From positions 1-64,000 of IMG/VR virus record IMGVR_UViG_3300042482_001698: a stretch of DNA of 64,000 bases; one strand, 5' to 3'. Positions 33,213 to 50,826 of this stretch are shown here, one piece after another. The notes under the pieces were generated by a model that saw only the letters and a list, made by a program, of their open reading frames with translations, was not told where the DNA came from and searched no databases. A program made the position numbers and the translations under genes. Origin of the DNA: a virus. Within the stretch, counting starts at the first letter, position 1, and each line of letters starts with the position of its first letter.

Positions 33213-33222
33213 TGAATGTATT

Positions 33223-33303
33223 GCCGCTGACCCAGAAATGGAACTGGATTGCTCTTCTAAAGCAACGGCGAAAGCCATGTGGGTTCGACTCCCGCCAGCG
33301 GTA
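33223..33303 (+). tRNA. tRNA-Arg(UCU) with long variable arm, no encoded CCA
   Basis: Acceptor GCCGCTG/CAGCGGT, D-arm CCAG-AAATGGAA-CTGG, anticodon arm TTGCT-CTTCTAA-AGCAA, V-arm GGC-GAAA-GCC, T-arm GTGGG-TTCGACT-CCCGC. Confidence 0.85.
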
Positions 33304-34092
33304 TTATTTTAGATCATAAAATTTAACCCATTTTCTTATGGAACTATCAGTAACTCCAAACATTATTCCCAATTGTGAAAAATTGTGTTTTTCTAAAAGT
33401 TTTTTTAATTCATCTCTTGTTGGACGATCAACTTTTCTTTTACTTGCAGCAGCACATTGAACAGAGCAATGTTTCGTGTTGTAGACATCAGTTTGACAAT
33501 TTGGACATTTTCCTGTTGGTTTCAAAGTATTAGTTAACAATGGGTTGGCTTCTCTTGTCTGTATCAATGATGCATCTGGATTGTGTGTTTCTCGATGACA
33601 ATTGGCACAAAGAAGAACACATTTTTTAAGTTCTTCAATAGTTTTATTCCACTTCATTTCTCTTGCTTTTACCCATGTCATTTCTTTAACTGATGGATCT
33701 AAATGGTGAAATTCCATTGCCGCATAGTTTTTGCAATATCCACAAATAACACACTTTCCTCCCATTAATTTTATTGCTTCCATTTTACGATCTAACCATC
33801 TATTTTTTTGTATTTCATACAAACAAACCTTGCAATAAGAATAATATTTTCTTTTTCCCTTTATCTTGTGAAAATAATTGACACATTTATATTCATTACA
33901 TTTAATACATTTTCTTTTTATTTCATTATTTTCTATTATTTGCTTTGCTTTTCCTGTTTCTAATTTTTTGGTATTGTGTTCCCCATATGGCGAGCAATCA
34001 AGACAATAACTTCTGTTGCCGAGATTTTTTTCTTTACCATCTATTTTGATGCGATTGGGGAAATTAGCTTGACACTTCTTGCATGTTGGCAT
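33304..34092 (-). CDS. Free-standing HNH (homing-type) endonuclease with Zn ribbons and C-terminal HTH
   Basis: CVICGY...EFHHLDP...CVLLCANCHRETH, several CxxC, FSQLGIMFGVTDSSIRKW. Confidence 0.85.
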   Translation of the reverse strand: MPTCKKCQANFPNRIKIDGKEKNLGNRSYCLDCSPYGEHNTKKLETGKAKQIIENNEIKRKCIKCNEYKCVNYFHKIKGKRKYYSYCKVCLYEIQKNRWLDRKMEAIKLMGGKCVICGYCKNYAAMEFHHLDPSVKEMTWVKAREMKWNKTIEELKKCVLLCANCHRETHNPDASLIQTREANPLLTNTLKPTGKCPNCQTDVYNTKHCSVQCAAASKRKVDRPTRDELKKLLEKHNFSQLGIMFGVTDSSIRKWVKFYDLK

Positions 34093-35334: not shown

Positions 35335-35928
35335 GTGCTTGTGTTGGCCGAGAGAAAAGTTCTTGTCCTTAACAAATCATGGCGTGCTATTGCGATTATT
35401 ACTCTTGAGAAGGCCCTTAGCAAGGTTTTTTCGACATATGATGATGGAACACCAAAAGCAAAAATTATTGATCCTAGCAATGATTTTATGATGTTTGAAT
35501 GGCATGAGTGGTCACAGATCATGCCAGATGATGACGAGTTAAAAATTAGGACTGTAAGTGCGTCCTATAAGGTTCCAGAGGTTATATTATACACAAAATA
35601 TGATAAAGTTCCATGTACTAAGGCGCAGTTTAACAGAAGAAGTATTTATCGAAGAGACAATAGTACTTGCCAATATTGTGGCGAGAAAAAAAAGAACGAT
35701 GAATTATCCTTGGATCATATTGTCCCTCGTTGTCAGGGCGGCAAAACTAATTGGGAAAACATTGTTGTTGCTTGTGTTGACTGTAATTCCCAAAAAGCTG
35801 GCAGAACGCCAAAGCAAGCTGGTATGAAGCTTCTTTGCGAACCCAAAAAACCTTTGTCTAACTTGCATTTGGATGAATCAAGGGCTGAATCTTGGGTTCA
35901 TTTTCTTGTTGCAGAAGATGTTGCTTGA
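35335..35928 (+). CDS. HNH endonuclease (McrA/HNH_5-like)
   Basis: VLVLNKSW...IYRRDNSTCQYCG...LDHIVPRCQGG..NWENIVVACVDCNSQK. Confidence 0.9.
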   Translation: MLVLAERKVLVLNKSWRAIAIITLEKALSKVFSTYDDGTPKAKIIDPSNDFMMFEWHEWSQIMPDDDELKIRTVSASYKVPEVILYTKYDKVPCTKAQFNRRSIYRRDNSTCQYCGEKKKNDELSLDHIVPRCQGGKTNWENIVVACVDCNSQKAGRTPKQAGMKLLCEPKKPLSNLHLDESRAESWVHFLVAEDVA

Positions 35929-35982: not shown

Positions 35983-36011
35983 AAAGAAATTCGTCCTCTG
36001 TTGACGGACGG
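35983..36011 (+). repeat. Dispersed element, copy A
   Basis: AAAGAAATTCGTCCTCTGTTGACGGACGG. Confidence 0.8.
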
Positions 36012-36844: not shown

Positions 36845-37540
36845 ATGATGTTGCATCCGTTTTTTTCATACTTTGGCTCAAAATATAGAATGGCAAAACA
36901 TTATCCAAAGCCATTATATGATATTGTCATTGAGCCATTTGCTGGCGCTGCTGGATATTCTTTATTATACCCAGAAAAAAAAATAATCTTATATGATAAT
37001 TACGAACCAATAGTTGAGCTATGGGACTATTTAATTAAAGTAAAAAAGGAGGAAATACTAAGTCTTCCTCTTGACAATAATGGTCACCAGTTTTCTAAAG
37101 AGTATCCCGTTTCTGATTGCAATATTGCAGCAGAAGCCAAGCTCTTAATTGGCTTTTGGCTAACAGAATCTCAAACTTCTTCTTCTCGTTATCCTTTGTC
37201 AAAGTCAAGAGGCGGTAATTGGACGGAACGCAAAAGAAATATGATTGCAAATCAAGTTAATTGCATAAAACACTGGGAAGTAAAAAATAAGTCTTATGAT
37301 GAAATAGATTTCAACCAAAAATGCACTTGGTTTATTGATCCTCCATATTCACAGGCTGGTAAACGATACAGAAACAATAACATAAATTATGAACAACTTG
37401 CTTCGTGGTGCAAAGAAAGACATGGACAAACAATTGTGTGTGAACAAAGTGGAGCCAACTGGTTGGAGTTTTCTACTTTTCAAAAAACTTCTAATGCCAG
37501 TAACAAAAAATATGAAGAAGTCATATGGACCAATTTGTGA
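36845..37540 (+). CDS. DNA adenine methyltransferase (Dam/D12-like)
   Basis: FSYFGSK, EPFAGAAGYS, FIDPPY. Confidence 0.85.
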   Translation: MMLHPFFSYFGSKYRMAKHYPKPLYDIVIEPFAGAAGYSLLYPEKKIILYDNYEPIVELWDYLIKVKKEEILSLPLDNNGHQFSKEYPVSDCNIAAEAKLLIGFWLTESQTSSSRYPLSKSRGGNWTERKRNMIANQVNCIKHWEVKNKSYDEIDFNQKCTWFIDPPYSQAGKRYRNNNINYEQLASWCKERHGQTIVCEQSGANWLEFSTFQKTSNASNKKYEEVIWTNL

Positions 37541-37594
37541 GAATCATAGTCAAATTAAATTCTGTTAAAAATTTATTTGATTCTTGAAAAAAAT

Positions 37595-37611
37595 TTTCCT
37601 CCGTTGACGGG
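37595..37611 (+). repeat. Dispersed element, copy B (partial)
   Basis: TTTCCTCCGTTGACGGG upstream of tRNA-Ile. Confidence 0.6.
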
Positions 37612-37657
37612 ATTGTTCTTGTATTTTTTTTTATTATGTGTATTATTAAATTGTTAA

Positions 37658-37979
37658 GGGCCTCTAGCTCAACTGGTTAGAGCAAACGACTTAGAAAGGA
37701 AGGCAACCTAAACAAGTTAAATCTTGCATGGTTGACTTCTATAGGGTTGCTAATTGTTTTCATATAATTATGTGGAAGCTATTAGTAGAATCTGTCAAAT
37801 TCGGTGAACCCTGTAAAATGGGAATACCGAGCCAAGCCTGAGAAATCGGGAAGGTGTAGAGACTAGACGGCAGACCCGAAAGGGAAGGTATAGTCCAGAC
37901 CACAAACCCGAAAGGGGCAACGAAAGTTGTAGTGGTAAGCATAATCGTTCGGTTCTGAGTTCAAGTCTCAGGAGGCCCA
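37658..37979 (+). tRNA. tRNA(CAU), most likely Ile2; exons 37658-37691 and 37940-37979
   Basis: Spliced sequence GGGCCTC TA GCTC AACTGGTTA GAGC A AACGA CT^CATAA TCGTT CGGTT CTGAG TTCAAGT CTCAG GAGGCCC A. G1-C72 is paired and there is no GGG/CCC anticodon stem, so it is not the initiator tRNA. Confidence 0.9.
37692..37939 (+). mobile_element. Group I self-splicing intron (IC3-like), 248 nt, no ORF
   Basis: 5' exon ends in U and the intron ends in G. P AAATTCGGTGAA, Q AATACCGAG, R GTAGAGACTAGACGG, S AAGGTATAGTCC. IGS GGTTG (~37745) pairs with exon CGACT. Confidence 0.92.
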
Positions 37980-37991
37980 TTTCAGAATTTT

Positions 37992-38008
37992 GTCCGTCAA
38001 CAGAGGAC
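37992..38008 (-). repeat. Dispersed element, copy C (inverted)
   Basis: GTCCGTCAACAGAGGAC is the exact reverse complement of 35993-36009. Confidence 0.85.
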
Positions 38009-38036
38009 AAACTGAAAGGATTAAGGAAGGACAAGA

Positions 38037-38861
38037 ATGAAGTACCCAGAGGACTTTCTAAACAAAATCATCCACGGCGACTGCTTGGATTTGATGCAGA
38101 CGATGCCAGAAAACTGCATTGATCTGATAGTTACCAGCCCACCGTATAACATCGGCAAGCCGTATTCTGGGTACAACGATAGTCTGGATTTTGCCGACTA
38201 CCACCAATGGCTCAGGAAGATGTGCCATGCGATGTACAGGGTCATCAAGCCCAACAGCAACATCTTCGTGAACATCTGTGACGTTGGCATTTCCAACAAA
38301 GATGCGAAAGGCGAGCATAGGATTGGCGAGCGGGGAAACTTTTACGTTGTTCCCAATCACACGGTTGTCATCGGTGAAATGATTGCTTTGGGCGGTCAGT
38401 ACCTCAATCCGATCATCTGGAAGAAGCCAAGTAACCACAACGCTCAGTTTGGTGCGAATGCTCGGTTCTGTGGTACTTATCCATATCCCAAGAACTGCCA
38501 TGTCCCATCGGAGATAGAGTACATTCTGCATTTCCGAAAGAACGGCTTGTACGAGAAGGTTGACAAACAAAAGAAGGAGCAGAGCAAAATTACCAAGGAA
38601 CGGTGGATGCAGTTGTCGGGGCAGATTTGGGAGTTCAACGGAGTCGTCGGAAGTAAGGGCCATCCCGCACAGTTTCCGATGGAACTACCACTTCGTTGTA
38701 TTGAGGGTTGGAGTTTCATTGAAGATGTAGTCCTTGATCCGTTTTTGGGTGTGGGGACGACTGCTTTGGCTTGCAAAAAGATGAACAGGCAATACATCGG
38801 CATGGATATTTCCAAAGAGTATTGCGATATGGCGATCAAGCATTTGGAAGAGGCTGTATGA
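38037..38861 (+). CDS. DNA methyltransferase, beta class (SPPY, probably N4-cytosine)
   Basis: IIHGDCL, TSPPYN, HPAQFP, VLDPFLGVGTT; visibly higher GC than its neighbours. Confidence 0.92.
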   Translation: MKYPEDFLNKIIHGDCLDLMQTMPENCIDLIVTSPPYNIGKPYSGYNDSLDFADYHQWLRKMCHAMYRVIKPNSNIFVNICDVGISNKDAKGEHRIGERGNFYVVPNHTVVIGEMIALGGQYLNPIIWKKPSNHNAQFGANARFCGTYPYPKNCHVPSEIEYILHFRKNGLYEKVDKQKKEQSKITKERWMQLSGQIWEFNGVVGSKGHPAQFPMELPLRCIEGWSFIEDVVLDPFLGVGTTALACKKMNRQYIGMDISKEYCDMAIKHLEEAV

Positions 38862-44959: not shown

Positions 44960-45006
44960 GGAAAGAAATCCGTCTTCCGTTGACGGACGGACGGACGCAT
45001 AGACGG
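44960..45006 (+). repeat. Dispersed element, copy D, with (GACG)4 extension
   Basis: GGAAAGAAATCCGTCTTCCGTTGACGGACGGACGGACG...GACGG. Confidence 0.85.
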
Positions 45007-50797: not shown

Positions 50798-50826
50798 GGA
50801 AAGAAATCCGTCATCCGTTGACGGCG
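50798..50826 (+). repeat. Dispersed element, copy E (perfect palindrome arms)
   Basis: GGAAAGAAAT-CCGTCA-TCCGT-TGACGG. Confidence 0.85.

Follow-up and report, generated by a model that had tools for sequence, protein, structure and literature searches.

We found that a tRNA(CAU) gene of a large phage, most likely a gene for tRNA-Ile2, very probably contains an IC3-type group I intron of 248 nt between U33 and C34; the intron carries no ORF and was presumably mobile at one time. The gene lies within the window, the 64,000-nt stretch of DNA that was analyzed. The window is part of an 83,754-base virus record in IMG/VR, which has a CheckV completeness of about 19% and an origin in lake-water metagenomes. 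Besides a virion structural protein (phrog_1645, E 1e-99), this virus record encodes HNH endonucleases and DNA methyltransferases; it is therefore a fragment of a large phage. The original prediction of an ORF-less intron after U33 of tRNA(CAU) on a phage contig is borne out by the spliced cloverleaf, by covariation in P1, and by the lack of a credible ORF. The locus is a clean example, from a phage, of a bacterial intron class that was already catalogued, and it opens no new mechanism.

The split gene and its intron

When positions 37658-37691 and 37940-37979 are joined in a script, the product is a 74-nt cloverleaf whose four stems pair perfectly and whose anticodon loop is CU-CAU-AA; ARAGORN labels it tRNA-Met(cat). 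The coordinates originally proposed for the insert, 37692-37939, were thus right, as was the loop that its removal restores. CCA is not encoded in the gene. The same 5' exon is found in L014, L207, and L208. The nearest relative is L014, a 59-kb viral contig that is the same as metagenome contig L207, and it differs from the window gene at 7 of 322 positions. Three of the differences fall in helices, where they keep or repair pairing: in L014, P6a has U-A instead of U.G, the acceptor stem has U.G instead of U-A, and the L1 hairpin has U-A instead of G.A. No intron-less allele was found in an exact search of viral and metagenome contigs with 27 nt of the 5' exon; the only matches were the intron-bearing L014/L207 and L208 and two unrelated tRNA-Lys(CUU) genes.

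Neither default ARAGORN nor the Rfam tRNA model at its gathering threshold reported the split gene, in agreement with the expectation that standard tRNA callers may miss it. ARAGORN in intron mode, which had been proposed as a check, does find the gene; the position of the intron and the isotype are wrong, with misplaced boundaries and the labels Ser(aga) or Leu(tag). The same misplacement on tRNA introns is described by Williams 2020 (bioRxiv 10.1101/2020.01.27.920355). The gene is therefore unseen by default callers and mislabeled in intron mode, so that phage tRNA inventories undercount such genes, and the codon-usage or host inference built on these inventories is affected as well.

The other check proposed, Infernal with the group I intron model, gave a match of the insert to the full RF00028 model at 42.5 bits (E 1.7e-9 local and 5.5e-11 for the whole record), which is below the Rfam gathering score of 50. 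According to Williams 2020, none of the Rfam seeds is bacterial, and cut-offs of 18-20 bits were used in that study for tRNA introns. The minimum free energy of the intron has a z-score of -5.65 relative to 200 shuffles. Since the RF00028 score lies under the Rfam cut-off, the fold was tested independently by covariation. The structure comprising P3, P4, P5, P6/6a, P7, P8, and P9/9a/9b was drawn from the window and mapped on a MAFFT alignment of 53 distinct related cores, in which 42 pairs were scored. Standard pairs occupy 95.0% of the cells, as compared to 29-42% when the 3' partners are slid by 1-3 columns, and 29 of the 42 pairs are changed on both sides. The cells changed on both sides number 413 versus 118 ± 9.5 in shuffles, and none of 500 shuffles reached as high a count. 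Across the 53 relatives, P3, P4, P6, P7, and P8 are 91-100% paired and P5 is 84% paired. Every residue that is invariant over these cores is kept in the window intron, among them the AAA of J3/4, the R and S elements, the bulged A of P7, and the GAAA of L9b. The predicted group I core with a terminal G is supported accordingly, P3 to P9 covarying in relatives and a G occupying position 37939.

The intron has no credible ORF. The only candidates are mechanical antisense ORFs of 60 and 79 aa, both running into the exon. A homing-endonuclease ORF is absent from the 248 nt, and long relatives carry PF11645 or unclassified ORFs. The group I intron at 37692-37939 is of the IC3 tRNA-intron type and lacks an ORF.

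The 5' splice site follows from P1. The U at the splice site, 37691, pairs with G 37745, and the intron ends in G. When pairs were counted column by column in 42 relatives, the splice-site pair was U.G in all 42 and the adjacent pair was C-G in 41. The -3 pair was A-U in 23 and G-C in 18; the sole exception, L043, is misaligned by one column and in fact has U-A. The first intron nucleotide pairs as U.G (22 relatives) or C-G (20 relatives). The covariation score of P1 is higher than that of all 500 shuffles and of all slid versions. In L043, a divergent relative on a 442-kb viral contig, the exon GGUCU/U is accompanied by the guide GGGACU, in place of CGACU/U and GGGUUG in the window, and this compensatory change fixes the guide at its tabulated position. 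The terminal (omega) G was required by the search pattern for most relatives and is an independent observation in the window, L014, and L043 only. An alignment-free test of P1 with decoy exons did not discriminate between exons, because 5-mers that tolerate G.U pairs match somewhere in any 100-nt stretch. P1 takes up C29 to U33. As with other tRNA introns, it therefore forms in competition with three of the anticodon-stem base pairs. By eye, P10 pairing is weak or absent.

The guide had been predicted as a GGTTG that pairs with CGACU and includes the wobble. The pairing and the U.G are as predicted, and the correct copy is the second GGTTG, 37745-37749. The first GGTTG (37730-37734) was considered as a guide and is ruled out by L043 and by alignment A1; it forms the 3' strand of the P1-loop hairpin. 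The internal loop of this hairpin is CCUAAAC/GCAUGG, and in L014 a change from G to U repairs a G.A mismatch in the hairpin. A CCUAAAC..CAUGG motif also occurs in the Burkholderiales Ile2-type introns L180 and L131. CCUAAAC/GCAUGG resembles the 11-nt GAAA-tetraloop receptor, from which we infer a receptor function, and in this lineage the P1-loop hairpin may serve to dock the substrate helix at a GAAA loop in the core.

Table 1. Features of the split tRNA(CAU) gene, in window coordinates
Feature	Position	Strand	Evidence and remarks
tRNA(CAU) 5' exon: acceptor 5' strand, D arm, anticodon-stem 5' strand, C32, U33	37658..37691	+	ARAGORN on the sequence spliced in a script
P1 5' strand: C29 G30 A31 C32 U33 and intron U1	37687..37692	+	column-wise count in 42 relatives
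Group I intron, IC3-type, 248 nt, omega-G at 37939	37692..37939	+	RF00028 match; core covariation
P1-loop hairpin (P1 extension)	37700..37738	+	MFE folding; stem covaries in L014 and L043
Internal guide sequence GGGUUG (P1 3' strand)	37744..37749	+	covariation; GG invariant and third G nearly so (A1)
P2, long hairpin	37750..37785	+	MFE and Rfam alignment; relatives have P2 in the same place with other sequences
P3	37791-37796 with 37869-37874	+	6 of 6 pairs change on both sides
P4	37800-37805/37826-37831	+	96.9% paired
P5	37809-37822	+	enclosed by P3 (37791..37874)
P6/P6a	37832-37854	+	P6a: 5 of 5 pairs change on both sides
P7	5' strand 37859-37865; 3' strand 37891-37896	+	100% paired; 5 pairs invariant, 1 covarying
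P8, CCC-GAAA-GGG	37875-37884	+	3 of 3 pairs change on both sides; J8/7 follows (within 37875..37896)
P9 with two GAAA-capped hairpins, P9a and P9b	37900..37935	+	P9b 99.1% paired, 4 of 4 pairs covary
3' exon: CAU anticodon, A37 A38, anticodon-stem 3' strand, variable loop, T arm, acceptor 3' strand, discriminator A	37940..37979	+	exon sequence; ARAGORN

The surroundings of the gene were inspected as well. A scan for sigma-70 promoters and intrinsic terminators around the tRNA gene returned nothing above chance. The motif CYGTTGACGG occurs 12 times with at most one mismatch, where 2.15 occurrences are expected; copies include window positions 37601-37610 (+), 37994-38003 (-), 35998-36007, 44977-44986, and 50815-50824. 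The tRNA is flanked by one copy at 48 nt upstream and, within a hairpin, by an inverted copy at 15 nt downstream; the motif, which brackets the gene, might act as a promoter, operator, or terminator of the phage. Elsewhere in the window, a tRNA-Arg(UCU) gene (33222-33304) has an extra GGC-GAAA-GCC stem-loop in its variable region, and its 3' end is adjoined on the opposite strand by an HNH endonuclease gene (33304-34092 (-), phrog_2255, E 1e-44).

Identity of the tRNA and fate of the intron

The tRNA(CAU) is probably tRNA-Ile2, as was predicted. It carries G3:C70, C4:G69, and C5:G68, and published identity pairs for the lysidine-forming enzyme TilS are 3:70 with 4:69 for B. cenocepacia and 4:69 with 5:68 for E. 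coli (PMC11947777). Its acceptor stem, GGGCCUC/GAGGCCC, is identical to that of intron-bearing CAU tRNAs of Burkholderia, Aquitalea, Rhodoferax, and Silvimonas, and its overall identity to those Burkholderiales Ile2-type tRNAs is 80-84%. The features of an initiator are absent: G1 pairs with C72, and no GGG/CCC run occurs in the anticodon stem (AACGA/UCGUU).

The same intron and splice sites would equally fit an elongator tRNA-Met, an identity that we regard as rather unlikely. It agrees with the ARAGORN label, which derives from the anticodon alone, and with the Met.2Ug class listed in Williams 2020. What counts against Ile2 is a tRNA-Ile(UAU) gene encoded by the same phage (G000:C1:76631-76702, outside the window), so that AUA is already served, a second AUA reader would be partly redundant, and elongator Met retains some probability. 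The TilS identity pairs and the Burkholderiales-like acceptor stem argue against Met, as does codon usage: the other two tRNAs of the phage read the rare A-ending codons AGA and AUA, and AUA is frequent in the phage itself (22 per 1000 codons, 27% of Ile codons). The tRNA-Ile(UAU) of the phage has an unusual D arm, and in L014 the corresponding gene lies instead 3 nt downstream of the split CAU tRNA. No TilS gene (PF01171) was found in the phage record, which is only about 19% complete.

With tRNA-Ile2 as the preferred identity, a self-splicing pathway can be proposed from the sequence. In the precursor, exon nucleotides C29 to U33 would leave the anticodon stem and pair with the guide GGGUUG to form P1, with the U33.G wobble at the splice site. 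Exogenous guanosine bound in P7 would attack after U33, and the terminal G of the intron would then occupy the G site. Ligation of the exons would give ...GACU-CAUAA..., i.e., the junction ...AACGACU-CAUAAUCGUU.... The host CCA-adding enzyme would complete the tRNA, and host TilS would act as well if the tRNA is Ile2, in which case the mature tRNA would help to read the frequent AUA codons of the phage. The intron itself is presumably a formerly mobile, phenotypically near-neutral element whose endonuclease gene was lost or never present.

RNA libraries were consulted for the transcript. The spliced joint 37691/37940 was not found in small shares of the Logan contigs of four metatranscriptome runs, over positions 37400-38300. 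Contigs from RNA libraries bridge the 5' site (X16 record 2) and the 3' site (X17 record 10) in unspliced form, and these may represent precursor RNA or carried-over DNA. Record 10 of X17, from a lake RNA library, matches 37855-37983 with one mismatch, spanning the 3' part of the intron and the 3' exon. Beyond the tRNA, it runs on into the downstream sequence of L014, where tRNA-Ile(UAU) begins, and not into that of the window, which indicates that an L014-type relative is present in that library.

That the intron is kept for a function appears improbable. The original prediction had suggested a timed release of the tRNA or a shielding of the precursor from anticodon nucleases, and protection of the gene from tRNA-targeting homing endonucleases can be added. 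Many large viral contigs carry tRNA group I introns, and one clade of 11 is exclusively viral; both observations would fit such a role, as would the HNH endonuclease genes nearby (33304-34092 and 35335-35928). However, no test made here supports any of these roles, the same class resides in ordinary bacterial tRNA genes across many phyla, and anticodon nucleases would reach the mature spliced tRNA as readily as any other. If such introns were retained for immunity to tRNA-targeting homing endonucleases or for a staged tRNA supply, this would be a new role in infection.

It is highly improbable that the intron is a decayed, non-splicing relic in a dead tRNA gene. The missing endonuclease ORF, the sub-threshold Rfam score, and the exclusively unspliced contigs in RNA libraries point that way, but all residues invariant over the 53 cores are retained, the differences in L014 preserve pairing, and both exons are intact. 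Finally, the reading given by ARAGORN in intron mode, a tRNA-Ser(AGA) or tRNA-Leu(UAG) whose intron of 228 or 248 nt would lie at the canonical position 37/38, is hardly conceivable, as its boundaries do not follow a P1-paired U, the Ser version lacks a terminal G and builds a fake long variable arm from the 3' end of the intron, only CU/CAUAA gives a 7-nt loop with U-1 and omega-G in at least 136 relatives, the 5' splice site is fixed by P1 covariation, and this very misplacement has been described (Williams 2020).

Insertion site, relatives, and other phage tRNA introns

Williams 2020 numbered the anticodon-loop positions 0-7 and recognized four classical bacterial classes, Leu.3Ug, Arg.5Ug, fMet.2Ug, and Ile2.5Ug, in which "2Ug" stands for CU/...g/CAUAA, i.e., insertion after U33. 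The seed alignment of that study includes Sba135.Met.2Ug and Gba28.Ile2.2Ug. The window intron has the U33/C34 site, U at -1, and G at omega (CU/...G/CAUAA) that define X.2Ug. Its host tRNA has neither the 1:72 mismatch nor the three G-C pairs at 29-31/39-41 of fMet.2Ug hosts, and CAU lies wholly in the 3' exon, which differs from the insertion after U36 of Ile2.5Ug. The window intron belongs to the bacterial IC3 tRNA-intron lineage, class X.2Ug.

To survey this site, contigs were scanned with the pattern GTAGAGACT-N70-100-GCATAA-N13-17-TTCRA, which matched 43 IMG/VR contigs and at least 120 bacterial genome contigs. Once 5' exons had been located, at least 136 loci proved to be tRNA(CAU) genes split as CU/intron/CAUAA, 31 of them viral and at least 105 bacterial. 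Among the bacterial loci listed, initiator tRNAs come from Scytonema, Nostoc, Nitrospirota, Omnitrophota, Saccharibacteria, and others, and non-initiators come from Burkholderiales, Neisseriales, Acidobacteriota, Chloroflexota, and others. The combination of intron, gene, and site was originally considered unusual, a view that has to be given up in light of these contigs, of the classical fMet.2Ug class, and of the catalogued Met.2Ug and Ile2.2Ug introns. The restriction of tRNA group I introns to cyanobacteria, plastids, and a few proteobacteria is likewise out of date, as they occur in many phyla. The classical fMet site rests here on Williams 2020 and on our own cyanobacterial loci.

By eye, alignments A1 and A2 contain two apparent architectural subtypes of 2Ug introns. 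The cyanobacterial fMet-type combines a P2 capped by GAAA with a long P8 that bears a receptor-like motif, CCUAAC..GAGGG; in the type found in the window, P8 has 3 bp and a GAAA or GUAA cap, and P2 lacks a GNRA loop. The two look as if the contact between L2 and P8 had swapped polarity.

Long initiator-type introns carry a PF11645 PD-(D/E)XK endonuclease ORF of about 150 aa, which starts about 20 nt into the intron and lies in the P1 loop. This ORF family is that of I-Ssp6803I. In long non-initiator 2Ug introns, ORFs of 122-146 aa were seen on the strand opposite to the tRNA (L063:8051-8419(-), L190:2728-3096(+), L093:4959-5399(+), and L081:6352-6789(+)). Three of the four have no significant Pfam match, and that of L081 has a winged-HTH match just over the cut-off and a sub-threshold HNH match; all four may be unclassified homing endonucleases.

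A maximum-likelihood tree was built from 116 distinct cores. The window intron and L014 form a well-supported pair of their own within an unresolved polytomy. Viral rows require at least 4-8 label changes and include one viral-only clade of 11, and a few "viral" rows nest within Burkholderiales or Accumulibacter clades. This pattern indicates repeated exchange between bacteria and phages, the tree giving no direction.

A 20-nt core motif matched 37 IMG/VR contigs, almost all of them at split tRNA genes, and the viral contigs contain at least five combinations of tRNA and site. The majority of loci are Leu(UAA) split after U34. The others are CAU after U36, the 5Ug type (L010, L012, L017, L019, L020, L026, L027, and L032), Lys(CUU) after U35 (L008 and L030), Arg(UCU) after U36 (L028), and CAU after U33 (the window, L014, and L043). 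Some of the viral CAU genes split after U36 are mislabeled tRNA-Gln(ttg) by ARAGORN. The cultured Agrobacterium phage Atu_ph07 (MF403008/NC_042013) has a tRNA-Leu(UAA) split after U34 by a 278-nt group I intron (L005:483-844), and the uncultured 735-kb phage LR756501 has one split at the same site by a 205-nt group I intron (L002:530-820). No tRNA feature is annotated at the Atu_ph07 locus, and LR756501 is without any annotation. As Atu_ph07 is cultured, splicing of phage tRNA introns is testable at the bench.

According to a 2014 review (PMC3984707), all phage introns then known sat in protein genes. A Lak-phage preprint calls introns in phage tRNAs previously unreported, and its "enigmatic" introns are not described as group I. 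No later description of phage tRNA group I introns was found in the searchable literature. Such introns are barely described in searchable papers, yet they are common in viral contigs, and with dozens of these contigs the textbook view that group I introns of phages reside in protein genes no longer fits the data. A broader reading, that bacterial tRNA group I introns have in large phages a sizeable and essentially undescribed reservoir and vector and that the P1-loop hairpin docks as outlined above, seems to us improbable as a whole.

Comparison with known systems

Group I introns of phages are classically found in protein genes, such as td, nrdB, and nrdD of T4, and in SPO1, Twort, and the psbA of cyanophages. 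These introns are, like the presumed self-splicing intron described here, phage-borne and of group I, but they interrupt protein-coding genes and ours interrupts a tRNA gene. The core sequence of our intron matches introns in capsid or DNA polymerase genes of pelagiphage HTVC120P, Chosvirus KM23C739, and the crAss-like phage cr116_1.

The intron of the Azoarcus tRNA-Ile(CAU) gene, of the Ile2.5Ug class, interrupts the same tRNA species and shares the IC3 core sequences AAAUUCGG, CCGAGCCAAG, GGUGUAGAGACUAGACGGCA, and AUAGUCC. It differs in being inserted after U36, where P1 uses ...CAU, and has a short P1 loop with L2-P8 and L9-P5 contacts. The original prediction had set the two sites apart correctly, but had overlooked the cyanobacterial fMet class, which uses the very site of the window intron.

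That cyanobacterial tRNA-fMet intron is reportedly present in Synechocystis, Scytonema, and Dermocarpa (Biniszkiewicz 1994), and the Synechocystis copy carries I-Ssp6803I. The fMet.2Ug introns share with ours an identical CU/CAUAA site, a structured insert in the P1 loop, and a P9 with two hairpins, one of them capped by GCGAAAGC. In their long versions the P1 loop holds a PF11645 ORF, whereas ours has a hairpin there and no ORF. The fMet host tRNA has a C1 mismatch and a GGG/CCC anticodon stem, in contrast to G1-C72 and AACGA/UCGUU in the phage tRNA. In addition, fMet introns have a GAAA loop in L2 and a long P8 with a receptor motif, and ours has a short, GAAA-capped P8.

The Ile2.2Ug class of Williams 2020 shares with the window locus a CAU Ile2-like tRNA, the site after U33, U-1, omega-G, and an IC3-like core. 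Burkholderiales introns of the Ile2.2Ug type (L180, L129, L091, L160, and L114) also have the identical acceptor stem in their host tRNAs and the same CCUAAAC..CAUGG hairpin in the P1 loop. Compared to this class, our intron lies on a phage contig, falls outside the Burkholderiales clade, and has a minimal P8 of 3 bp capped by GAAA.
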